From: a virus
Lineage: Duplodnaviria > Heunggongvirae > Uroviricota > Caudoviricetes
Virus record (IMG/VR): IMGVR_UViG_2531839662_000026
Strand: one strand, 5' to 3'
DNA: 20,298 nt
Position numbers and translations under genes: made by a program
Shown: positions 4,266 to 20,298 of the stretch, in pieces
Layout: every line of letters begins with the position of its first letter
Numbering within the stretch: the stretch's first letter is position 1
Notes under the pieces: generated by a model
What the model was told of the DNA's origin: nothing
Seen by the model: only the letters and a program-made list of their open reading frames with translations
Database searches by the model: none

Positions 4266-4660
4266 GACAGCAGCCCTCCCACCGTTTTACTGATATCGCT
4301 TAAGGCAGACGTTGCCGTGTCCTGCAGATTATTCAGTTGCGCACTGAGATCACCGAACATATCGGACAGGGATTCATCCACTCGTTTGAGCGACAGGGTG
4401 AACTCAATCCGGCGCGGCATACCGTCGCGGAAAAACTCCGTTTTAGTCTGATTCAGTCCCTCAATCACATACATGCCGTAAATCGTGCCGCTGCCTTCAA
4501 TCAGGGGCCATGCTTTCCCCTGTTCTGCCATCTGCTCCAGTGCCAGCAACGACAGCCTGCCGCCTGTTATTTCCGGCATAAGAACACCGGAAAGCGTCAG
4601 CATGTCGTTTTCCGGTCCCAGAAACTGCGTGGACGGACGTCGGTTTAACGCACCTCCGGT
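4262..4660 (-). pseudogene. U: 5'-truncated tail protein U gene (P2 gpU homologue), fused to an N fragment by an internal deletion
   Basis: ORF 4262-4603 (...GVLMPEITGGRLSLLALEQMAEQGKAWPLIEGSGTIYGMYVIEG...) resembles the C-terminal two-thirds of gpU. The same frame stays open upstream to about 4660 without a start codon, then meets a stop at the junction with N'. Confidence 0.6.
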
Positions 4661-7519: not shown

Positions 7520-8553
7520 TGGGAAAGAGTAAGAAGAACCGCGCTGCGTCGACGAAACAGATCCAGCATAAAAGCCAGACTTCAGCCGAAGCATTCAGCT
7601 TCGGTGATCCCGTTCCTGTTCTGGACCGCCGCGAACTGCTGGACTATGTGGAATGCGTACAGATGGAGTGTTGGTACGAGCCACCCGTAAGTTTTGACGG
7701 ACTGGCGCGCACCTTCCGGGCTGCCGTGCATCACAGTTCCCCGATTGCAGTAAAGTGCAACATTCTGACCAGTACCTATATCCCTCATCCGCTGCTCAGC
7801 CAACAGGCTTTTTCGCGTTTTGTACAGGACTATCTGGTATTTGGTAACGCCTACCTGGAGAAACGCACGAACCGATTCGGTGAAGTTATCGCCCTTGAGC
7901 CTGCGCTGGCAAAATACACCCGACGCGGGTTAGACCTGGATACCTACTGGTTTGTGCAATACGGTATGACAACCCAGCCGTATCAGTTCACGAAAGGCAG
8001 CATTTTTCAGCTGATGGAACCGGACATCAACCAGGAGATCTACGGCCTGCCCGGCTATCTTTCTGCCATCCCATCCGCTTTGCTCAACGAGTCCGCCACG
8101 CTGTTCCGCCGCAAGTATTACATTAACGGCAGTCATGCCGGCTTCATCATGTACATGACCGATGCCGCGCAGAACCAGGAGGATGTGAACAACCTCCGCA
8201 ACGCAATGAAAAGCGCCAAAGGTCCGGGTAACTTCCGCAATCTGTTTATGTACTCGCCTAATGGTAAAAAAGACGGACTTCAGATTATCCCGTTGTCAGA
8301 AGTCGCAGCGAAGGATGAATTTCTGAATATCAAAAATGTTAGTCGCGATGACATGATGGCGGCACACCGCGTGCCGCCACAGATGATGGGGATAATGCCA
8401 AATAATGTTGGGGGGTTTGGGGATGTGGAGAAGGCAAGTAATGTATTTGTACGCAATGAACTAATACCATTGCAAAAAAGATTTGAAGAGTTAAATGTTT
8501 GGTTAAAAGAAAAAGTGATACAGTTCGAAGAATATAAACTTCATTCAAATTAG
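7519..8553 (+). CDS. Q: Portal (capsid vertex) protein (P2 gpQ homologue)
   Basis: 344-aa ORF MGKSKKNRA...FSFGDPVPVLDRRELLDYVEC...LARTFRAAVHHSSPIAVKCNILTSTYIPHP... matches recalled P2 gpQ closely. Start set at the ATG at 7519. Confidence 0.9.
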   Translation: MGKSKKNRAASTKQIQHKSQTSAEAFSFGDPVPVLDRRELLDYVECVQMECWYEPPVSFDGLARTFRAAVHHSSPIAVKCNILTSTYIPHPLLSQQAFSRFVQDYLVFGNAYLEKRTNRFGEVIALEPALAKYTRRGLDLDTYWFVQYGMTTQPYQFTKGSIFQLMEPDINQEIYGLPGYLSAIPSALLNESATLFRRKYYINGSHAGFIMYMTDAAQNQEDVNNLRNAMKSAKGPGNFRNLFMYSPNGKKDGLQIIPLSEVAAKDEFLNIKNVSRDDMMAAHRVPPQMMGIMPNNVGGFGDVEKASNVFVRNELIPLQKRFEELNVWLKEKVIQFEEYKLHSN

Positions 8554-8559
8554 CTTTAA

Positions 8560-8578
8560 GGCTGCCAGTTTGGCAGCC
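8560..8578. terminator. Hairpin (ggctgcca-gtt-tggcagcc) between convergent Q and the ATPase cargo gene
   Basis: Perfect 8-bp inverted repeat in the 32-bp gap between two convergent stop codons. No strong T-run, so termination efficiency is uncertain. Confidence 0.35.
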
Positions 8579-8585
8579 AGAACCT

Positions 8586-9836
8586 TTATCGCCATTTTAG
8601 ATAAAAAGCAAAAAATGGATCAGTAATATGCAACTTTCGGTCCTCCTTATCCCAATCTATTACAGGAGTTGAAGCTTCTTCCGTAGCAGCTATTTTAGCC
8701 ATTTTTTCTATAACACGAGTAACCTCATGAGCTTGTGGAGGAGCATCTTGCACCAGTTCGCGTATGGCTGATCTTAACTCCTCATACTGAATACTTTGCA
8801 TTCCTGGTTTCATATGTGACAATGCATATAATACAACTTTATATATATCTACTTCCTCACCACTTTTCAGTTTTCTAGGAATTCTGTCAGTTCGCTGATT
8901 AGGGCCACTAGCTAACTTATCAAATACTATTTTCCCAGTGGATTCTGCAACCTTTCTAAAAATATCATCATCTAAAGAATTAATAACTAACTTACTCGGC
9001 AAAGTTTCTTTAACATTATTTGCTAAGCATATAGCCTTGCAAAACTCTTGCATTAAATGAGGGCTTCCCAATGATTCATTGGCAATTTTATCAATTACTG
9101 AATCACTAACTTCCATGTTTAACAGAGGAAATCCCACTTTTGCTATTTGTTTTAGTTCATCCATTTCCCACGAAGGCATGGAAATATTTTCTAGCCGTCC
9201 GGTAATTTCTTTTTCAACTTTTACAGCATCATATCTTCGATGTGGAATGGCTATCAGTACAACTGGTACTCCATCAAAAACTAATGGTTTTATCGCTCTA
9301 ATAAAGTTACCTTGTAGGTCACGATCAAGGTAATGAAAGTCATCAATTATAAGACTAGACTTGGTTTGAGAGAGAACTTTTAGTGCAGAACTTTTTGCGG
9401 ATATCGTTCGCGATTTTTTATTACCATTTGACTTTCCATCCGTCTGAACTAAACCAGCCTCACCTGTACCTTTAACAACGAATGCACTTGCGGTCCCCGA
9501 TACCTTACCACTAACTGCAATAGCACTATTTTCTCCAGAATTAACTTCAATACTATGGTAGCCATTTAGTTTTTCTAATACCTGCTCCCAAATATCATCT
9601 TCAGTTGTAATACTCCCACCGTCAATCCATACAACATCATCGTCCATGACTGGGAATACCATTCTTGTAATTACAGTCTTACCAGACTTTGTTTGCCCAG
9701 TTAAAGTCACTAACTTACATAAATTATCTTTAGCACTCTCCAGTTTTCCATGAACCTCTCCTTCAGAGCGCTCAACATAAGTCAATTTCGGCATACCGCC
9801 AGGCACAAAAACTTGTGAAGCACGTTGTTTATCCAT
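8586..9836 (-). CDS. Cargo gene: 416-aa P-loop NTPase (Walker A GQTKSGKT, Walker B LIIDDFH), function unknown; candidate anti-phage or accessory ATPase
   Basis: Long ORF with an ATG start preceded by a GGGAAG Shine-Dalgarno-like sequence. Walker motifs are visible in the translation. AT-rich compared with neighbouring phage structural genes. No homologue recognised from memory. Confidence 0.7.
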   Translation of the reverse strand: MDKQRASQVFVPGGMPKLTYVERSEGEVHGKLESAKDNLCKLVTLTGQTKSGKTVITRMVFPVMDDDVVWIDGGSITTEDDIWEQVLEKLNGYHSIEVNSGENSAIAVSGKVSGTASAFVVKGTGEAGLVQTDGKSNGNKKSRTISAKSSALKVLSQTKSSLIIDDFHYLDRDLQGNFIRAIKPLVFDGVPVVLIAIPHRRYDAVKVEKEITGRLENISMPSWEMDELKQIAKVGFPLLNMEVSDSVIDKIANESLGSPHLMQEFCKAICLANNVKETLPSKLVINSLDDDIFRKVAESTGKIVFDKLASGPNQRTDRIPRKLKSGEEVDIYKVVLYALSHMKPGMQSIQYEELRSAIRELVQDAPPQAHEVTRVIEKMAKIAATEEASTPVIDWDKEDRKLHITDPFFAFYLKWR

Positions 9837-9873
9837 GAATACTTCCCAATTAACACAGCTCTAGTGAACTACG

Positions 9874-9902
9874 ATTCTAAAATAACATCTGAGCTTGGAC
9901 AA
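9874..9902 (-). promoter_or_regulatory. Candidate sigma70 promoter for the ATPase cargo gene (TTGTCC - 17 nt - TAGAAT on the - strand)
   Basis: Hexamers and spacing read from sequence, ~40-65 nt upstream of the ATG at 9836. Confidence 0.3.
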
Positions 9903-9944
9903 TTAACATTACATGATTTGAGTATTCAAAGCCACAAGCGCGCG

Positions 9945-9963
9945 CTCGTATCCCCGCCACGCC
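9945..9963 (-). other. Candidate cos (cohesive end) site: - strand reads GGCGTGGCGGGGATACGAG
   Basis: First 13 nt match my recollection of the 186 cos end (GGCGTGGCGGGGAAAGCAT; P2 is GGCGAGGCGGGGAAAGCAC). Lies in a GC-rich non-coding island between the Q-side and A-side gene blocks, where cos is expected. Confidence 0.4.
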
Positions 9964-10123
9964 TGCCCGCTTTATGTAGCGGTTTTCATGCGCCTGCATG
10001 ACATAAGCAAAATCCCGCCACTCCTGGCGGGCCTCAGCTAAAACGATCCTCAAACGATCATGCGGATTCATGCGGCATAGACATGCACAATCTCCAAAGC
10101 GGGCATCGAGACTTTTTGGAAAC

Positions 10124-10735
10124 CTACGTAACCACAGTTAATGTGTGCATCCTGTCTCGAATTGCATCACACGTCTCATCAAAAAGCTTGGTGATGGTTG
10201 TATGGTTCAACTCCGCCTCTTTCCAATAATTTTGCCCGTCAAATTCTGGATCGCTATGCTTAAACGATATTGACTCTGTAAGGCATTCCTTCCGGAAACG
10301 GTCCAAGATTATATAAACCTCTGGTGAGATGAACGGTTTGTTAGATTCAACACTTGTAACAAAAGTGTTAAATGCATCAAAAAAAACTTTCAACCTTCTA
10401 AATTTTCTCTCTTCAAATGGTTCGTTGGGGTCAACATGATCCAGCGCAGGCCTCAGCTTAAGCACGCTTTCTCTGGTTTCAAACATCGAATTCCAAATGA
10501 GACTATATGCTGATAACTCCTTATCAAAATACGCTTTCGTTACATAAACAGAATTGTCTAACTTAGCCTTTATTCTTTCATTAGTTGCACTCAGTTGTGA
10601 TTGAAATTCAGCAATATCTTTGTTTAGCCGCGACTTATATCTTTCTAAATAAACTTTCCCGATCCAAACAAATATGCCAGATGCAACAAAAGACACCCCA
10701 CCCAACGAAGCCAGAACTTTAAAGACTAAATCCAT
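10124..10735 (-). CDS. Cargo gene: 203-aa protein with one N-terminal transmembrane helix, function unknown
   Basis: ATG at 10735 with a GGTGG Shine-Dalgarno-like sequence upstream. N-terminus VLASLGGVSFVASGIFVWIG is hydrophobic. AT-rich. A TATAAT -10 hexamer lies about 20-25 nt upstream of the ATG. Confidence 0.6.
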   Translation of the reverse strand: MDLVFKVLASLGGVSFVASGIFVWIGKVYLERYKSRLNKDIAEFQSQLSATNERIKAKLDNSVYVTKAYFDKELSAYSLIWNSMFETRESVLKLRPALDHVDPNEPFEERKFRRLKVFFDAFNTFVTSVESNKPFISPEVYIILDRFRKECLTESISFKHSDPEFDGQNYWKEAELNHTTITKLFDETCDAIRDRMHTLTVVT

Positions 10736-10783
10736 TGCGCCCCCACCTGCAAAAATAGTATTCCATTATAAGCTAATACATTT

Positions 10784-10999
10784 TTAATCAAACAGGGGAT
10801 AATTCGCGTCAACCTCATCACTTCTCTGCTCTCCCCTGGTGACTTCCATCAAAAACCCCAGGCCGTCATATAGCGAAACGGGGAATTCCAGCTCAAGCCA
10901 GAAGCAGTCTTCATAGATGCGGCCCAACCAAAAACCTCCGCCACACTCCTTTGGGCGTTGAAAGAAGACCCAGTCGCCAAGGGTTAAACGTTCCAGCAC
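10784..10999 (-). CDS. Hypothetical 71-aa ORF (GTG start), possibly the 3' part of an amber-interrupted gene
   Basis: ORF from the six-frame track. In the same frame, 45 nt upstream, an ATG with an RBS opens MGKKDSNHQIIYRG and then hits TAG immediately before the GTG. Confidence 0.3.
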   Translation of the reverse strand: MLERLTLGDWVFFQRPKECGGGFWLGRIYEDCFWLELEFPVSLYDGLGFLMEVTRGEQRSDEVDANYPLFD

Positions 11000-11117
11000 C
11001 TAGCCCCGATAAATAATCTGGTGATTACTGTCTTTTTTACCCATGGCTAACGCCTCGCTACTCTCGTTGTTCAACCTTGCTGACGTCAGATTCAAGTTCT
11101 TACATCAGGAACGTTCC

Positions 11118-11351
11118 TTAGTGCAGCCAGCTGTCGTCTTCCCAAACCTGTTGCATAATTTCCATCACCCGCTTTTTGTCTTCATCAAGCTTTAAGCCAC
11201 TCAGCTCAACGCCGTTTGCCGACCCTTTACGGATGCGGATAGCGGTCTTGGGATAGATGGGTTGCAGGTTGCGGTAAAGCTCGGACTCCAGAGCGTCCAG
11301 GGTAGACTGGCTAATCTTCTGCTCTTTATCGATCATTATTTCAATGCGCAT
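11118..11351 (-). CDS. DinI-family protein (~77 aa)
   Basis: Translation from the internal ATG, MRIEIMIDKEQKISQSTLDALESELYRNLQPIYP...VMEIMQQVWEDDSWLH, aligns with recalled E. coli DinI (MRIEVTIAKTSPLPAGAIDALAGELSRRIQYAFP...ISEILQETWESADDWF). GAGGTG RBS upstream of the ATG at 11351. Confidence 0.75.
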   Translation of the reverse strand: MRIEIMIDKEQKISQSTLDALESELYRNLQPIYPKTAIRIRKGSANGVELSGLKLDEDKKRVMEIMQQVWEDDSWLH

Positions 11352-11361
11352 AAAAGTCACC

Positions 11362-11550
11362 TCAGCTGATGACATCCATTGAGCGGTTGTATTCGTGGCT
11401 TCTGATTTTTGCCATGAGTTCATCAGTCAATTCAGAAACCCACTGCAGGGCCAGCCCCTTCTCTTCATCACTACACTCACTAGCCGCTACAAGCTTAAGA
11501 AAAAAATCAATGCGCTGGAGCTTCAAAGACTCCAAAAAATAGTCCTGCAT
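11362..11550 (-). CDS. Hypothetical 62-aa protein, first gene of the DinI-like operon; possible Tum-like antirepressor N-terminal module
   Basis: ATG at 11550 preceded by a perfect AGGAGG RBS. Position is equivalent to the 186 tum locus, downstream of A and near cos. The function is inferred from position only. Confidence 0.45.
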   Translation of the reverse strand: MQDYFLESLKLQRIDFFLKLVAASECSDEEKGLALQWVSELTDELMAKIRSHEYNRSMDVIS

Positions 11551-11593
11551 CTTTCCTCCTATGACACCGCAAACAATACTGTATAGATAACCA

Positions 11594-11609
11594 CTATTTA
11601 TATTTACAG
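11594..11609. promoter_or_regulatory. Degenerate LexA-box-like sequence (CTAT-N8-ACAG) overlapping a candidate -10 (TATACT) upstream of the 62-aa/DinI-like operon
   Basis: Read from sequence: 16 of 20 positions match TACTGTATATATATACAGTA, with one mismatch in a core CTGT half-site. On the - strand a TTTACA -35-like hexamer lies about 15 nt upstream of the -10. Confidence 0.3.
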
Positions 11610-11703
11610 TATATAATAATCTTACTGATGTAAAACGTTTTTTTACGTTCATCAGCCTGATATGCCTGGTATTATTAAGAGCACGAATTGTTAACCCGCG
11701 TAA

Positions 11704-14118
11704 TTAATACAGGTTCCGCCACTTATCATCTTCCTGCAAACGCTGGTTCCGATAGAAGACACGCAGGCCTGCTCCTGACGGAATACTGCCGCCGCGAAGG
11801 AGTAAATCGACCTCTTTCTCGCTGCCATCAAATCCTCTGGACTTCAGTTCATAGACGAGCTGCTGTCGTTGATGGTCTGTAATTCGCTGTTTGTAGTCTC
11901 TACGCCGTTTCGGTTTCACCAGGCGTAACCTTGCAGCCAGTTCCCGGCGCTCTTTTTTGTTCATACTGTGCAGGTAATCGTGCAACTCCTTGTCATCCAT
12001 GTGGGTAATGTCCGTTCTGGTATCCCCATCAGCTGATTTGTCTTTCCCTTGTTGGTTCAAATTTTCAGCAAGGGGACAGTTATTGCCACGAGTCCAAGGG
12101 GCGCAAGCGCCCTGGTCGGCTGCCGCCTCCTGAACGTCAACGGCCTTACGAACCATTTTCCACTTCACCGCATGAGTGCAGATCTTGCCCTCTGCAATGG
12201 GTGACCAGATGCCATAAATACGAATACCGTGATCGCCATAGGCGGTTGGCTCTTCGTTGATTTCATAAGCGGTTCTGATGAGGTGATATTTACGGGGAAC
12301 CAGTACGCCGCCCTGCTTCATGATATAGGTGGCAAAACAACCAGCATCAGCAGCAGCCAGAATGGCATCAAGGCGCGGGTTATCCAGTACCGGCGCACCT
12401 GCTTTTTTGTCACCCTGTTGCCTTGCCGCCTGACCAGCCAGCAATCGCAGTTCACGGTAAGCCTGACGCCCCGGAATGCCAAAGAAGCGGAATTGCTGAA
12501 CACGATGCAGAGACGCCCAGGCATTAACGTATTCAGCGTTATCACGCAGGGATTTACCCGTTTCCTTGCTGATCTCCCCAGCCAGACCACGCCCGTCAAT
12601 GTTCTTACTGATGTATTTCGCGATATAGCTTGTTGGCGTACCTTTGCGCGGGTTTATCAGCTCAGACTTAAAGCGTGGTCCCGTGTTATTGCCCAGCTCC
12701 TCGCGGTCTTCACGGATGGCAAACTTACGCAGTAATGCAGTGATGGCGCGGCGGTCTTTTTTACGCATGAAACACATGAGATGCCAGTGCACAGTACCGT
12801 CATGATGCGGCTCAGCTACCCGCACGCCATACCAGCGCAACTCGGCTTTATGCATAGCCTTACGAAATGCAGCAAACATGCCGACCAGATAATCGCTACT
12901 TTGTCTTACCGTCGCGTTTGTCCAGGTCGGGTTTGGTCTGCCGTTATTGAGCGTGGAATGGAAACGCGACGGACAGGTGATAGTGTAGAAAACGGCACAG
13001 TCACTGCGCATTTCCGCGATAAGCTCCAGACCTTTAACACAGGCCATCATCTCATTGCGGCGATGCGCCGGGTTGCTGCTGCTGGCGTTTACCACATCTT
13101 CCATATCCAGCGTGTCGCCGTCTTCGTTCACCAGTTCATGAGAACGAAAAAACTCCAGCGACTTACGGCGCTGCTCACGTTTATGCATCACGGCTTCATA
13201 GCTGACATAGGGGGATGCTTTTTTGCTGACCAGGCAGACAGCACGCAACTGCTCTTCCCGCCATTCGCAACGCATCTTCCATAATTTCCGATACCACCAG
13301 TCGGCACACAACATACGCGCCAGCGAACCCGGGATGAGTTCATAGGGCACTGGTTTGCGGCGGTTTCTTTTCCGACGAAGTTTCTCAAATGCAGGCGGGA
13401 TAACATCCAGACGCAGGGTTTCCGCTGCCACCTTTTCCCATGTCTTGCGGATTTCTTCTGGCTTAACGTCATCGGTGGCATACAAATCACCACAAGCGTC
13501 CTCAAGACACATGCTCATATGCGCTGCTACCAGGGTGGACAGGCGTTTCACCTGATCCTGGCTCATTTCAGGCAGGATCAGCAGACCCTCCAGCCCTTGA
13601 TGGCTTGCCATAAAACGGAAAGAAACAGATAGCTGACTGTCACGTACACAATCCAGTCGCTCCAGACATGGCTTAATCGTCTCACGCAAATAGCGGGAAT
13701 AAGCCTTTGGCCTGCCCAGGCTGCTGAAGTATTCAATACGTTGCATCAGCGGCTTGCTGATATGGGAAGGCTGGGCGTTTACGTCCGCCAGAATGACCAT
13801 GTCCGGATTAAAACGCTGCTGCTCATGCGCCAGCTTTGCCCGGCTAATGAGCTTATCCTGCTCCATTTCGCGCTGGACAGGATCACGGGATTCATTAAAG
13901 AAATAACGCTCCCAGACCTGCTCACTCAGTGCCTCGCGGCGCAGTTGTTCCTGCTCGTTATCGGCAGCGTACAGAGTGATCAGGTTTGAAAGTGCAGACT
14001 CCGGCGCAACTTCCGCCGGGTCCAGATAAGGGTTAATGGCCTTTTTCGAGCCGTTCCATGAAAATGCTGCGGCGGCCTCGTTAAAGCCGCTGCAATTGTT
14101 CATATCGTCATGACTCAT
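11704..14118 (-). CDS. A: Replication initiation endonuclease (P2 gpA family rolling-circle initiator)
   Basis: ~800-aa ORF with the conserved tyrosine motif [10 protein letters not shown] and overall similarity to recalled P2/186 A. Start placed at the ATG at 14118, which overlaps the dam stop (ATGA); the ORF track extends to a GTG at 14124. Confidence 0.88.
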
Positions 14119-16868: not shown

Positions 16869-17465
16869 ATGTCAACATCAAAGTACCCAAGTGAGATCAA
16901 AATAAATCCCAATAAAGGTGGTAAGGCTGCGATTGAGCGATTAGTCGAAGCTTATGGCTTTACGACACGACAGGCTTTAGCTGATCACTTGGAAGTATCA
17001 AAAAGCACTCTGGCGAACAGGTATTTGCGGGATACGTTTCCTGCAGACTGGATAATCCAATGTGCTCTTGAAACAGGAACCTCACTGAAATGGTTAACCA
17101 CCGGGCAAGGACTTAAGCAAAGCTCGCTGACAGTAGCCACAGAAGAGCTTCCCAAGTTTCGCCTTACCGCAGGCAAAATGATTGAAGATGGTTCATATGT
17201 ATTCGATTCATCATTTCTTCCTGCAAATCTTTCATCACCAATTGTTATTCAGGATGGGCTTGTCACATACATTTGTGATCAAAAATTTTCTGAAGTACTT
17301 GATGGACACTGGTTAATCAACATCGACGGAACCTATTCCATTCGAAAAATCACAAAGCTTCCAAAAGGTATGATTAAAATTACAACTACAGAGAATAGCT
17401 TTGAATGTGCATTTTCTGATATTGAAGTGGTTGCTTGTATAAGAAGTACAATAGTTTCAAATTGA
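16869..17465 (+). CDS. cI: CI-like immunity repressor (198 aa)
   Basis: ATG start. N-terminal HTH-like segment (RQALADHLEVSKSTLANRYL), plus position and orientation (divergent from apl, same strand as int), fit the 186 CI family. Confidence 0.8.
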   Translation: MSTSKYPSEIKINPNKGGKAAIERLVEAYGFTTRQALADHLEVSKSTLANRYLRDTFPADWIIQCALETGTSLKWLTTGQGLKQSSLTVATEELPKFRLTAGKMIEDGSYVFDSSFLPANLSSPIVIQDGLVTYICDQKFSEVLDGHWLINIDGTYSIRKITKLPKGMIKITTTENSFECAFSDIEVVACIRSTIVSN

Positions 17466-17485: not shown

Positions 17486-19162
17486 ATGAATTCATTTTCC
17501 ATCGTTATATTATTATTAGCATTTCTCGCCCCTGTTCTAGCTATAATATTATTTAAGCAAAGTAAAGAACACAAAGCCGCCATAGATAACCTGACGGCTA
17601 ACAACATAGCCCTTTCCAGCCAACTGAGTGAAAATCAAGAAAAGTTAGCACAGACTGCACGAGATCTATCAGAGCTTGAAGGGCGAGCAGCACCATTATG
17701 GCAATACGAAGAATTGCACAGCGCAGTGATGGAGGCAGAGAATAAGATAAAAAATGCAGACTCAATAGCTAGGCAAAAAATAGAAGAAGCCCAAATAAAG
17801 GCAGCTAAGACAGTAAACGAAGCAAGTTATCAAGCTCAGATAACAATAAGCAACGCTAATAGCGAAGCTATAGCAATCACCAAAGACGCTCGCGATGCAC
17901 GCCTGAAAGCCAAAGAACGTCTTGATAATGCCAACAGTAAAGCAAATGAGCTGATCTCAAATGCTAATGACAACGCAGTAAAAATTATTACCGATGCAGA
18001 AGAAAGAGCAAAAGAGATTGCTGGTTCAGCATATGAAGCTAAAGAGTTTGCAGAAAAATATGAAGCAGTTGCCAAATCAATGAAAAATAAAATTGAAGGT
18101 TATGGCGATGAATGGATCATCCCTAACCGTAGTGTACTTGATGAATTGGCAGAAAATTATGAGTTTACAGATGCAGGCAAGGAATTACAAAAAGCCAGGG
18201 AGTTAACAAAATCATTAATAAAAACTAATAAAGCAGCTTCGTGTGATTATGTTGAGCAAAACAGGCGTAATACTGCTATCAACTTTGTTTTGGATGCCTT
18301 CAATGGAAGAGTTGACAGTATTTTATCAAAAGTCAAACACAACAATTTTGGAAAACTTTCCCAAGAAATAAAAGATGCATTTCAACTTGTAAATTATAAT
18401 GGCTCTGCTTTTAGATCCGCAAAAATAAGTGACATCTATCTTCAGGCACGACTCAACGAGCTAAAATGGGGAGTTGCAGTTAATGAAATTATGCTCGAAG
18501 AAAAAGAGGAGCAAAGAAGGATTAAAGAACAGCTTCGTGAAGAGGAAAGAGCTCGTAGAGAGTATGAAAAAGCGATAAAAGAAGCCGAAAAAGAAGAAAA
18601 AGCTATTCAGCAAGCTATAAATAAAGCAACGAAAGAGCTTATGCTTGCAAATGAAGAACAACGCTTAGCTTTAGAGCAAAAAATAGCTGAACTACAGTTA
18701 AAATATGAAGAAGCTGAAGCTAAAAACCAACGAGCTATTTCTATGGCTCAACAAACTAGATCAGGCCATGTTTATATAATTAGCAATATTGGCTCATTTG
18801 GCGAAGATGTATATAAAATTGGAATGACACGCCGCCTTGAACCACTTGATCGTGTTCGTGAACTTGGGGATGCTAGTGTTCCTTTTTCGTTCGATGTTCA
18901 TGCGATGATTTATAGTGATGATGCACCGTCATTAGAAAATCATCTGCATAAAGTCTTCAACGAAAAGCAGGTCAATAAAATTAACTCACGAAAAGAGTTT
19001 TTTAACGTAAATATTAAAGAAATTAAATCGGTTATTGAAGATATGAACATCAATGCCCACTGGACAATGTTTGCAGAGGCGAAAGAATATAGAGAGTCAC
19101 TAGCTATTGAGCAGGAACGCAAAGCAGCCACTTCCGCCAACGATGAACTACATGTTGCTTAG
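17486..19162 (+). CDS. Cargo gene: 558-aa protein with an N-terminal transmembrane helix, a long coiled coil and a C-terminal T5orf172/GIY-YIG-like domain; candidate lysogen-expressed defence or exclusion factor
   Basis: ATG with an AAGGA RBS 8 nt upstream, 20 bp after the cI stop. Hydrophobic N-terminus FSIVILLLAFLAPVLAIILF. Strongly A/E/K/Q-rich middle with repeated NANS/NAND motifs. C-terminus GHVYIISNIGSFGEDVYKIGMTRRLEPLDRVRELGDASVPFSFDVH...EFFNVNIKEIKSVIEDMN fits the T5orf172 (MUG113) pattern as I recall it. Markedly AT-rich. Confidence 0.8.
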   Translation: MNSFSIVILLLAFLAPVLAIILFKQSKEHKAAIDNLTANNIALSSQLSENQEKLAQTARDLSELEGRAAPLWQYEELHSAVMEAENKIKNADSIARQKIEEAQIKAAKTVNEASYQAQITISNANSEAIAITKDARDARLKAKERLDNANSKANELISNANDNAVKIITDAEERAKEIAGSAYEAKEFAEKYEAVAKSMKNKIEGYGDEWIIPNRSVLDELAENYEFTDAGKELQKARELTKSLIKTNKAASCDYVEQNRRNTAINFVLDAFNGRVDSILSKVKHNNFGKLSQEIKDAFQLVNYNGSAFRSAKISDIYLQARLNELKWGVAVNEIMLEEKEEQRRIKEQLREEERARREYEKAIKEAEKEEKAIQQAINKATKELMLANEEQRLALEQKIAELQLKYEEAEAKNQRAISMAQQTRSGHVYIISNIGSFGEDVYKIGMTRRLEPLDRVRELGDASVPFSFDVHAMIYSDDAPSLENHLHKVFNEKQVNKINSRKEFFNVNIKEIKSVIEDMNINAHWTMFAEAKEYRESLAIEQERKAATSANDELHVA

Positions 19163-19220
19163 CAATGTATGTTTCATAGCAATCACACATTGATTACTGG
19201 TTGTATATACAGTTAAATTT

Positions 19221-19245
19221 AGCCCTCTGATATGAGGGCTTTTTT
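19221..19245 (+). terminator. Rho-independent terminator candidate (agccctc-tgatat-gagggct + TTTTT) ending one base before the int ATG
   Basis: 7-bp perfect stem followed by ttttt, read from sequence; the int start codon follows at 19246. Confidence 0.5.
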
Positions 19246-20298
19246 ATGGCAGTACGAAAACTCACCACAGGAAAATGGCTTTGCGAATGTTACCCCGCCG
19301 GACGTAGTGGACGTCGTGTGCGTAAACAATTCGCCACCAAAGGCGAAGCACTGGCTTTTGAGCGTCACACGATGGAAGAAACCGAAGCAAAGCCCTGGCT
19401 AGGTGAATCAGTGGATCGTCGAACACTGAAAGACGTGGTTGAGCTATGGTTCAAACTACATGGTAAATCACTGACAGCTGGGCAGCATGTCTATGACAAA
19501 TTGCTGCTGATGGTTGACGCTCTGGGCAATCCCCTTGCAACTGATCTAACCTCTAAAATGTTTGCCCACTATCGAGATAAACGCCTGACAGGTGAGATCT
19601 ACTTCAGCGAGAAATGGAAGAAAGGAGCAAGCCCGGTCACCATTAACCTGGAGCAAAGCTATCTAAGTAGTGTTTTTAGCGAACTATCCCGCCTGGGCGA
19701 ATGGTCGTATCCGAACCCACTGGAGAACATGCGAAAATTCACCATCGCAGAAAAAGAGATGGCATGGCTTACCCATGAGCAGATTGTTGAATTACTGGCT
19801 GATTGCAAACGTCAGGACCCAATTCTGGCACTGGTAGTTAAGATATGCTTAAGCACAGGCGCACGCTGGCGAGAAGCCATAAATCTTACTCGTTCACAGG
19901 TGACCAAATACCGAATTACCTTTGTAAGAACGAAGGGGAAGAAAAATAGAAGCATCCCTATCAGTAAAGAGCTTTACGAAGAGATCATGGCGCTTGATGG
20001 GTTCAATTTCTTCACAGACTGCTATTTTCAATTTTTATCCGTGATGGAAAAAACGTCTATCGTGCTCCCTCGCGGTCAACTCACACACGTTCTGCGCCAT
20101 ACGTTTGCGGCGCACTTCATGATGTCGGGTGGAAACATTCTGGCCTTACAAAAAATTCTCGGACACCACGATATAAAAATGACTATGCGTTACGCACATC
20201 TGGCACCGGATCATCTGGAAACGGCGCTCCGTTTCAATCCTCTGGCAACGCTGCCAAGTGGCGACAAAGTGGCGGCAGCGGTTGGCATTACCCCGTAA
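19246..20298 (+). CDS. int: Tyrosine integrase, P2/186 family (350 aa)
   Basis: Translation aligns along its length with recalled P2 Int (e.g. CLSTGARW.EA..L....V....ITF..TK, HVLRHTFA.HFMM.GG.I..LQ.ILGH..I..TM.YAH.AP). Its 3' end contains the att core copy; stop at 20296-20298. Confidence 0.9.
   Translation: MAVRKLTTGKWLCECYPAGRSGRRVRKQFATKGEALAFERHTMEETEAKPWLGESVDRRTLKDVVELWFKLHGKSLTAGQHVYDKLLLMVDALGNPLATDLTSKMFAHYRDKRLTGEIYFSEKWKKGASPVTINLEQSYLSSVFSELSRLGEWSYPNPLENMRKFTIAEKEMAWLTHEQIVELLADCKRQDPILALVVKICLSTGARWREAINLTRSQVTKYRITFVRTKGKKNRSIPISKELYEEIMALDGFNFFTDCYFQFLSVMEKTSIVLPRGQLTHVLRHTFAAHFMMSGGNILALQKILGHHDIKMTMRYAHLAPDHLETALRFNPLATLPSGDKVAAAVGITP
20259..20280. repeat. attL core candidate (tggcgacaaagtggcggcagcg) inside the 3' end of int
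   Basis: Matches 21 of 22 bases to 2834-2855. Confidence 0.6.

Follow-up and report, generated by a model that had tools for sequence, protein, structure and literature searches.

What do two small genes directly downstream of the replication gene A contribute to a prophage of the P2 family? The question is raised by a window of 20,298 nucleotides (the whole stretch of DNA that was analysed), in which genes for a 62-aa and a 77-aa protein occupy the place that tum takes in phage 186. The best explanation, to which we assign a probability of roughly 0.85, is that the pair, tumA and tumB, is a two-gene SOS induction module of 186-type P2-family phages, located here in a Fels-2-like remnant of Escherichia coli UMNF18. 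The initial annotation, made from the sequence of the window, also took the pair for a split form of Tum, and this interpretation is supported. Two things were unknown to it, namely that the split has already been described and that the prophage is a deletion remnant.

The chromosome of E. coli UMNF18, a porcine isolate, contains the window with 100% identity. The element belongs to the P2 family, is Fels-2-like and has inserted between rcdA and ybjL; the closest phages are Fels-2 and Fels-2-like phages of Klebsiella and Escherichia. The RefSeq annotation of UMNF18 lists CI, CII and Fil, and labels CI as 'phage repressor protein CI'. This CI is of the 186 type, unlike the 99-aa C repressor of P2, which agrees with the earlier placement of the element on the 186 side of the family. 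By these sequences, lysogeny control is Fels-2-like, on the 186 side, for which CI, Apl, CII, Fil and tum are characteristic, rather than P2-like with C, Cox, orf91, tin and old. The features that matter for the argument are collected in Table 1.

Table 1. Features of the window that belong to, or bear on, the tumA-tumB module.
Feature	Position	Strand	Description
gpA replication endonuclease	11704..14118	-	Phage_GPA E 1.5e-127; directly upstream of module; stop 11706-11704
Hairpin after A	11624..11656	-	CTGATGAACGT-loop-ACGTT..CATCAG; RNA fold -12.6 kcal/mol, z = -3.4 versus shuffles
-35-like TTTACA, putative tum promoter (186 p95 equivalent)	11629..11634	-	Read from sequence
LexA box 1 (putative)	11592..11611	-	TACTGTAAATATAAATAGTG; overlaps -10; C-to-T at 11596 (CAG to TAG)
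LexA box 2 (putative)	11577..11596	-	TAGTGGTTATCTATACAGTA; ACAG half-site conserved; centre variable
tumA	11362..11550	-	62-aa ORF; ATG 11550, stop TGA 11364-11362; AGGAGG 11560-11555
tumB	11118..11351	-	77-aa ORF; ATG 11351, stop TAA 11120-11118; DinI family
CI repressor, 186 type	16869..17465	+	32% identical to 186 CI, 54% to E. coli HS CI
LexA-type box upstream of int	19195..19214	.	TACTGGTTGTATATACAGTT; 32 nt upstream of int ATG (19246)

Two small genes with ribosome-binding sites, the second coding for a DinI homologue, had been reported after A, and both their coordinates and their Shine-Dalgarno sites were confirmed. The AGGAGG of tumA lies 4 nt ahead of its ATG. The site of tumB (GAGGTGA, 11363-11357) shares bases with the TGA stop of tumA, and this overlap by itself suggests that the two genes may be translationally coupled. 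The upstream gpA corresponds to CDS 15205..17619 of L127 in the RefSeq annotation of UMNF18. Comparison of related loci (36 distinct DNA versions of tumA besides that of the window, coding for 10 distinct proteins) yields a dN/dS of 0.061 for tumA and of 0.068 for tumB. Ratios of about 0.06 indicate strong purifying selection on both reading frames, which are real genes. A 96-aa version of tumA with its start at 11652, taken from a mechanical list of open reading frames, was rejected because its start falls in the hairpin behind gene A, ahead of the putative promoter and LexA boxes; the 62-aa form is also the one annotated by RefSeq. The plus-strand reading frames 11369..11542 and 11395..11586, which overlap tumA and tumB, are without support, and no Rfam match was found within 8400-12000. 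A terminator-like hairpin at the junction of the two genes folds no better than shuffled sequence (z = -0.9) and is considered incidental.

The relationship of TumA to Tum is a distant one. Pairwise BLASTP of TumA against 186 Tum returned no alignment, and profile methods are therefore needed. A hidden Markov model of the TumA family matches residues 5-48 of 186 Tum with 36 bits (E 3e-13, an E-value for a single comparison) and close relatives of 186 Tum with about 40 bits, and hhalign of the TumA family against the Tum family yields a probability of 97.7% (E 1.7e-12). TumA belongs to phrog_698, which is matched by the N-terminal half of 186 Tum as well (E 5.9e-6), and both TumA and this half of Tum match phrog_8554 and phrog_1993, the latter being the family of PSP3 TumA. 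In the joint alignment of TumA and Tum the residues E7, R13, C26, A34 and E40 are near-invariant. An exhaustive representative search produced 67 relatives of TumA with identities down to about 35%, nearly all of 35-100 aa, and some of these, such as P0147 (...QRIELVARLVADSECGDADKELAINWIAELT...), visibly link the family to 186 Tum (...ERVEMIARLTAEGTCQERDREIALNLIAEIA...). No convincing fusion of the TumA subfamily with DinI is present among the 67; the longer matches are extended gene calls or unrelated sequence. Taken together, the profiles establish TumA as a homologue of the part of 186 Tum that precedes its DinI-like half.

Structure adds a prediction rather than a further relative. TumA falls into no Pfam family (the sole match, at 0.095, is a chance one), and a sequence search of the PDB yielded no relatives. 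AlphaFold2 models the protein with a pLDDT of 87.9 and places helices at residues 2-23 and 28-61, so that TumA is predicted to be a two-helix hairpin whose turn holds the conserved Cys. Foldseek of this model against BFVD returned nothing with E below 0.001, the hits being generic helical hairpins only.

Function is informed most directly by E. coli HS. The product of ECHS_RS04495, the 'tum' gene of the HS prophage (DuoHS), and TumA have the same sequence (100% identity). When this gene is deleted in frame, mitomycin C no longer brings about lysis by the HS prophage, and lysis is likewise lost with a non-cleavable LexA, lexA(Ind-) (PMC12055606). The proposal that the first gene codes for a stand-alone antirepressor matches this published work on an identical protein, as well as a report on PSP3 that is taken up below. 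Binding to CI has been demonstrated for 186 Tum only. For the Fels-2 type it is the requirement of the gene for induction that has been established, and we infer that TumA contacts CI directly. In UMNF18 the presumed target is the CI of the window, and TumA would there have to contact an allele that is 54% identical to HS CI.

The second gene is more easily assigned. TumB covers the Pfam DinI profile (PF06183) completely, at positions 1-63 of 63 (E 2e-24; 86.1 bits against a cut-off of 24.2), belongs to phrog_189 and matches E. coli DinI (PDB 1ghh) over residues 1-75, the C-terminal W-E-D/E segment included (E 2e-9). With 186 Tum it shares 43% identity over Tum residues 71-145 (E 2e-25). The statement in the initial annotation that the C-terminal part of Tum is related to DinI is borne out by the 186 record and by this alignment, as Tum is a protein of 146 aa with a DinI-like C-terminal half. 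By sequence, TumB is homologous to that half and to PSP3 TumB. Alignment of both proteins to 186 Tum, the check suggested at the outset, hence reveals similarity in both cases, by direct alignment for TumB and by profiles for TumA. Given its membership of the DinI family, TumB would act on RecA filaments or on their co-protease activity, and the 186 record annotates truncated Tum products with 'modulates SOS induction'. Modulation of RecA by the DinI-like protein had been put forward as an alternative to the antirepressor; the two are compatible and there is no need for an either/or.

Upstream of the pair lies a hairpin (Table 1) which is kept in E. coli HS, Fels-2 and Cartapus, and which likely terminates or insulates the early operon; the -35-like hexamer of the putative tum promoter falls within its 3' arm. 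A strict sigma-70 consensus scan detected no promoter in the spacer between A and tumA; the tum promoter was assigned by alignment with 186 p95 and by the position of the LexA boxes. The spacing from TTTACA is 15 nt to TATACT (11613..11608) and 17 nt to TACTGT (11611..11606); the latter hexamer is given as the p95 -10 in the 186 record.

The putative operator consists of two overlapping LexA boxes, of which the 20-mers overlap by 5 nt and the 16-nt cores have one base in common. In Fels-2, E. coli HS and Cartapus it reads TACTGTAAATATAAACAGTGGTTAT-NNNN-ACAGTA. The CTG and CAG triplets are retained, with a variable centre of box 2, in almost all of 120 IMG/VR loci, and about 17% of complete E. 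coli genomes carry the canonical tum operator. 186 and PSP3 each have one LexA box only, which aligns with box 2. As for box 1, the canonical form (...AAACAGTG) is found in E. coli HS, Fels-2, Cartapus, 119 of the 120 IMG/VR loci and 905 E. coli genomes, against one locus and 4 complete E. coli genomes for the T variant of UMNF18 (...AAATAGTG). Approximate heterology indices, not computed with the published Lewis matrix, are 4.65 for canonical box 1 and 8.73 for box 1 of the window. On the same approximate scale, box 2 reaches 7.9 against 9.1 for dinG. The T variant is thus predicted, approximately, to have a lower affinity for LexA, yet one that functional sites, dinG among them, also show. 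Since the CAG of box 1 is lost, repression may be weaker than in the relatives; LexA would presumably still bind the mutated operator.

It might be argued that this promoter mainly drives the cargo past tumB during the SOS response, and not prophage induction. Neither the fold behind tumB (z = -0.6) nor a terminator scan gives a significant terminator there, and the first terminator-like hairpin on the same strand is located at 10031..10014. The next two genes have the same orientation: the first is a homologue of gp46 (phrog_2100), and the second codes for a 203-aa protein. The 186 record, too, describes a p95 transcript that partly passes t95a into orf97. However, the first downstream gene bears a nonsense codon in the window (CAG to TAG at 11002-11000 in comparison with the isolated phage Cartapus), and the downstream genes are wholly different among relatives whereas tumA-tumB is constant. 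Such read-through would moreover supplement the antirepressor function rather than replace it. As an account of what the promoter is mainly for, we regard it as possible but rather improbable. Neither TumA nor TumB itself matches a defence model of PADLOC.

A different doubt arises from the state of the prophage. In the E. coli HS prophage the counterparts of window positions 4647 and 4660 are separated by about 15.0 kb, and the loss in UMNF18 spans from inside the capsid gene N to inside the tail gene U, lysis genes included. With about 15 kb of late genes gone, the UMNF18 prophage cannot make virions, and SOS derepression can at most activate early genes, replication, excision and possibly the genes past tumB. 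The module could then be a decaying relic in a dead prophage, its genes intact by chance and useless to element or host. Apart from the deletion, this is favoured by two C-to-T changes relative to Cartapus, of which one destroys the CAG of box 1 and the other creates the TAG stop in the next downstream gene. Against it stand the identity of TumA to the functional HS protein and the intact reading frames of tumA, tumB, cI, int and A. In addition, the same operator variant occurs in two different prophages with late regions that are complete as far as they were fetched. The variant is therefore tolerated and by itself not a sign of decay, which weakens its interpretation as a mark of a dead prophage. 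Overall we consider a useless relic unlikely.

Finally, a reading in which the antirepressor is in fact TumB, with the 62-aa protein as no more than an accessory or leader peptide, is very improbable: Tum is one polypeptide in 186, hence the activity could lie in either half, whole Tum proteins are labelled 'DinI' by PHROG and RefSeq, and deletion of tumA may be polar on tumB via lost translational coupling, but in-frame deletion of the 62-aa gene alone ends induction in E. coli HS (PMC12055606), the upstream gene of PSP3 is reported to carry the antirepressor activity (Lemire 2011), and the 186 record has full-length Tum as the inhibitor of CI binding and the truncated DinI-like products as modulators.

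The preferred reading, that of tumA-tumB as a two-gene SOS induction module, is carried by the homology of both halves to Tum, the identity of TumA to a gene that is required for induction and the conservation of the double LexA operator. In the undamaged cell LexA would sit on the two overlapping SOS boxes over the -10, just past gene A. Upon DNA damage RecA would be activated, LexA would cleave itself and the tumA-tumB operon would be transcribed. TumA would then bind the 186-type CI stoichiometrically and reversibly, so that CI leaves its operators and the early lytic operon is switched on. TumB, translated from the Shine-Dalgarno site that overlaps the stop of tumA, would bind RecA filaments and tune the strength or duration of the SOS response. 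In UMNF18 no phage output would follow; the expected outcome is at most derepression of early genes, replication and excision, and possibly of genes past tumB.

Another observation concerns the diversity of the repressor. Across 64 loci with tumA, tumB and cI, TumA is 97-100% identical to that of the window and CI 39 to 100%. These loci were picked by an exact operator match beside tumA, and the pattern is therefore partly a sampling effect. For 52 distinct CI alleles the mean pairwise identity is 71% in the N-terminal domain and 41% (minimum 22%) in the C-terminal domain. The conservation of the N-terminal DNA-binding domain, next to a diverged C-terminal oligomerisation domain, suggests that TumA may target the former. 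It is conceivable, although we put this forward only tentatively and think it somewhat doubtful, that TumA is a 'master key' antirepressor with which Fels-2-like elements, remnants included, could upon SOS induction lift the repression of relatives with another CI type, whether these share the cell or enter it.

A LexA-type box is also found upstream of int (Table 1). It is the top LexA-like site of the window, with an approximate heterology index of 2.15. The box lies inside a promoter-like element, and a hairpin and T-run follow before the int ATG. In E. coli HS the element consists of TTGACA, a 17-nt spacer with CTGGTTATACATACAG, and AAAAAT. The box is present in 45 of 68 related loci, where the CTG and CAG are invariant, the centre is variable and changes in the hairpin are compensatory; the remaining 23 loci are 186-like, with cI abutting int and no box. 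The HS type of the box was found in 556 E. coli genomes. A literature search found no description of a LexA box at int. From its sequence and distribution, the site is a candidate second SOS node.

The split arrangement is annotated in PSP3, described in Fels-2 and genetically tested in E. coli HS, and the discovery value is therefore small. The module itself is well characterised and very common; the value that remains lies in an annotation gap and in the side observations. The 62-aa gene is still 'hypothetical' in RefSeq and of 'unknown function' in phrog_698, though it is the induction switch of a common prophage type. In UMNF18 this switch sits in a remnant that is unable to lyse the cell yet bears candidate defence cargo, a homologue of PD-Lambda-1 and one of PDC-S59. 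One TumA for many CI alleles, the double operator and the int box all bear on cross-talk between prophages in the SOS response. If TumA is indeed a master key, then together with the double operator and the int box it would give this very common prophage group a more elaborate SOS wiring than 186 has with its one box at p95.

A two-gene split of the 186 Tum module is already known from Fels-2-like prophages, and the order in which the module follows A is common to 186 (A-p95-tum), PSP3 (A-tumA-tumB), Fels-2, E. coli HS and the window. The HS prophage DuoHS resembles the window in its identical TumA, gene order, Shine-Dalgarno sites, hairpin and double operator, has ECHS_RS04495 between gpA and the DinI-like ECHS_RS04500, and occupies the same rcdA-ybjL site. 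Unlike the window, it is complete and inducible, has a canonical box 1 and carries different cargo; its CI is 54% and its TumB 86% identical to those of the window.

Fels-2, the type phage of the group, has the order STM2729-STM2728-STM2726.1 and the same operator plan, and its TumA (STM2728) is 97% identical to that of the window. Its record refers the DinI gene to PSP3 TumB. It differs in its downstream cargo and in having a canonical box 1. According to Lemire 2011, which cites Bunny et al. 2002, tum of Fels-2 and PSP3 is split by a stop codon and the upstream gene is the antirepressor. Salmonella without lexA is viable only once Fels-2 is lost, and a 2025 paper and Lemire 2011 attribute the lethality to Fels-2. 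In PSP3 the record labels tumA as 'similar to 5' end of 186 tum; UV induction' and tumB as 'similar to dinI and 3' end of 186 tum'. PSP3 TumB is nearly identical to TumB of the window, with an identical C-terminal half, whereas its TumA is of another subfamily (phrog_1993) that scores 4.6 bits against the profile of the window's family, and its operator has a single LexA box.

In 186, tum follows A and is expressed from the LexA-repressed p95, the -10 of which overlaps the box; both halves of Tum have homologues in the window. Established work on 186 has Tum made from this promoter, bind CI reversibly and block its operator binding. The differences are that 186 makes one fused polypeptide of 146 aa under one LexA box, and that identity to TumA is about 23% and detectable by profiles only. 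The 186 record does give a separate DinI-like product from an internal start. A DinI-like part is absent from 114 of the 120 listed 186-type relatives of the N-terminal half of Tum and present in only 6, which indicates that the split state is common in the 186-type clade too. Most entries of these stand-alone relatives have 63-91 aa, and some short ones look as if they had arisen from the fused form by fragmentation or a frameshift. P2, by comparison, has orf91 (DUF3850), tin and old after A and neither tum nor a DinI gene in its record, in line with the initial statement that P2 is without such a module.

Similar tendencies exist outside the P2 family. The phages Gifsy-1/2/3 (gfoA, gftA) have a LexA-controlled operon of a DinI homologue and a small antirepressor directed against a non-cleavable repressor. 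These are lambdoid phages, however, in which the two genes come in the opposite order, and neither their antirepressors nor their repressors are related to those considered here. The operator has its closest parallel in the double SOS box of the colicin type, CTGT-N8-(A/C)CAG-TGGTTAT-N4-ACAG, likewise two overlapping LexA boxes. A 43-nt double-box query has matches in 1204 plasmids, and the promoter of the colicin-like bacteriocin of pCKO3 contains TACTGTATATAAAACCAGTGGTTATATGTACAGTA 43 nt upstream of the bacteriocin gene. Double boxes of this design bind two LexA dimers with high affinity, and their repression is very tight. In the window box 1 is mutated and the controlled gene is that of a phage antirepressor, whereas colicin-type boxes control a toxin and a lysis gene.

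The Fels-2-like prophage of E. coli UMNF18 is a deletion remnant. Compared to the complete prophage of E. coli HS, approximately 15.0 kb is missing, and the deletion ends lie inside capsid gene N and inside tail gene U. The lost stretch took with it the lysis genes, the small subunit of the terminase and the majority of the tail genes, and both stumps at the junction are partial pseudogenes in the RefSeq annotation.

Candidate defence cargo is held in two hotspots: the interval between cI and int and the interval between tumB (the DinI-family gene) and the portal gene. RefSeq names for the 558-aa protein of the first hotspot include DUF4041 and 'SNIPE associated domain'. The gene 3' of tumB encodes a homologue of Cartapus gp46 (phrog_2100, labelled as unknown function in PHROGs). 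It is broken by a CAG-to-TAG nonsense codon, with the in-frame TAG at 11002-11000, and RefSeq annotates only the downstream 71-aa piece. The name 'valyl-tRNA synthetase' for the 203-aa cargo protein looks like a mis-annotation. Nothing backs it except a coiled-coil match to Val_tRNA-synt_C that stays below threshold (E = 0.009; 16.7 bits, cut-off 25.9). The interval that separates the 203-aa gene from the 416-aa gene holds a terminator-like hairpin, which falls within an annotated 64-aa ORF (9877..10071), and this 'hypothetical protein' may not be a genuine gene.

Coordinates of the features discussed, in window positions unless another source is named
Feature	Position	Strand	Remarks
Deletion junction	4647-4660		
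416-aa AAA ATPase	8586-9836	-	between tumB and portal gene; candidate system PDC-S59 match, E 1e-31
Promoter-like site	9902..9874		between 203-aa and 416-aa cargo genes
Terminator-like hairpin	10014-10031	-	GC-rich; CCCGCCAGGAGTGGCGGG then ATTTTGCTTA
203-aa cargo protein	10124-10735	-	RefSeq 'valyl-tRNA synthetase'; phrog_26391 (unknown function)
Cartapus gp46 homologue	10784-11045		
tumB	11118-11351	-	
tumA	11362-11550	-	
tum operator	11577-11611		box 1, 11611..11592
pCKO3 counterpart of tum double SOS box	L126 1966-2000		
cI	16869-17465		compared with tumA across IMG/VR loci L004-L123
558-aa protein	17486-19162	+	between cI and int; PADLOC PD-Lambda-1 match, E 1e-119
int-upstream element	19163-19248		LexA-like box 19195-19214; hairpin ~19221-19238; int ATG 19246

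Upstream of int we find a promoter-like element, which contains a strong LexA-type box and is followed by a hairpin and a T-run; these last two immediately precede the int start codon. The int-upstream element is kept in 45 of the 68 related loci, with compensatory changes in the hairpin, and is missing from those loci where int abuts cI. Its HS-type version occurs in 556 E. coli genomes. This arrangement suggests that int expression would be under SOS control and insulated from read-through of cI and the cargo.

Versions of the antirepressor homologue TumA that are 97-100% identical to that of the window accompany 52 distinct alleles of the repressor CI, among which mean pairwise identity is 71% for the N-terminal domain and 41% (minimum 22%) for the C-terminal domain. 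These comparisons hint that the conserved CI DNA-binding domain is the TumA target and that TumA could work across CI types. A glycine-rich tail closing in ...LQ or ...FQ, e.g. NPQNGGESGRGALQ, terminates many of the distant TumA relatives (P0147, P0149, P0153, P0156, P0173, P0178 and P0181); the window TumA lacks this tail.

The tumA-tumB boundary is a mosaic joint. Measured against relatives, tumA shows a synonymous divergence of 0.12 and tumB one of 1.2, and the C-terminal half of PSP3 TumB is identical to that of the window protein.

The Fels-2-like tum operator is a double, overlapping SOS box. In the window a C-to-T change (minus-strand T at 11596) removes the CAG of promoter-proximal LexA box 1. 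This variant is rare: 4 complete E. coli genomes carry it and 905 keep the canonical box, and a single one of the 120 IMG/VR loci has it. Two different prophages with apparently intact late genes carry it as well. Colicin and bacteriocin operators follow the same sequence plan as the Fels-2-like double box, and a 43-nt query matches 1204 plasmids. 186 and PSP3 have one LexA box instead of two.
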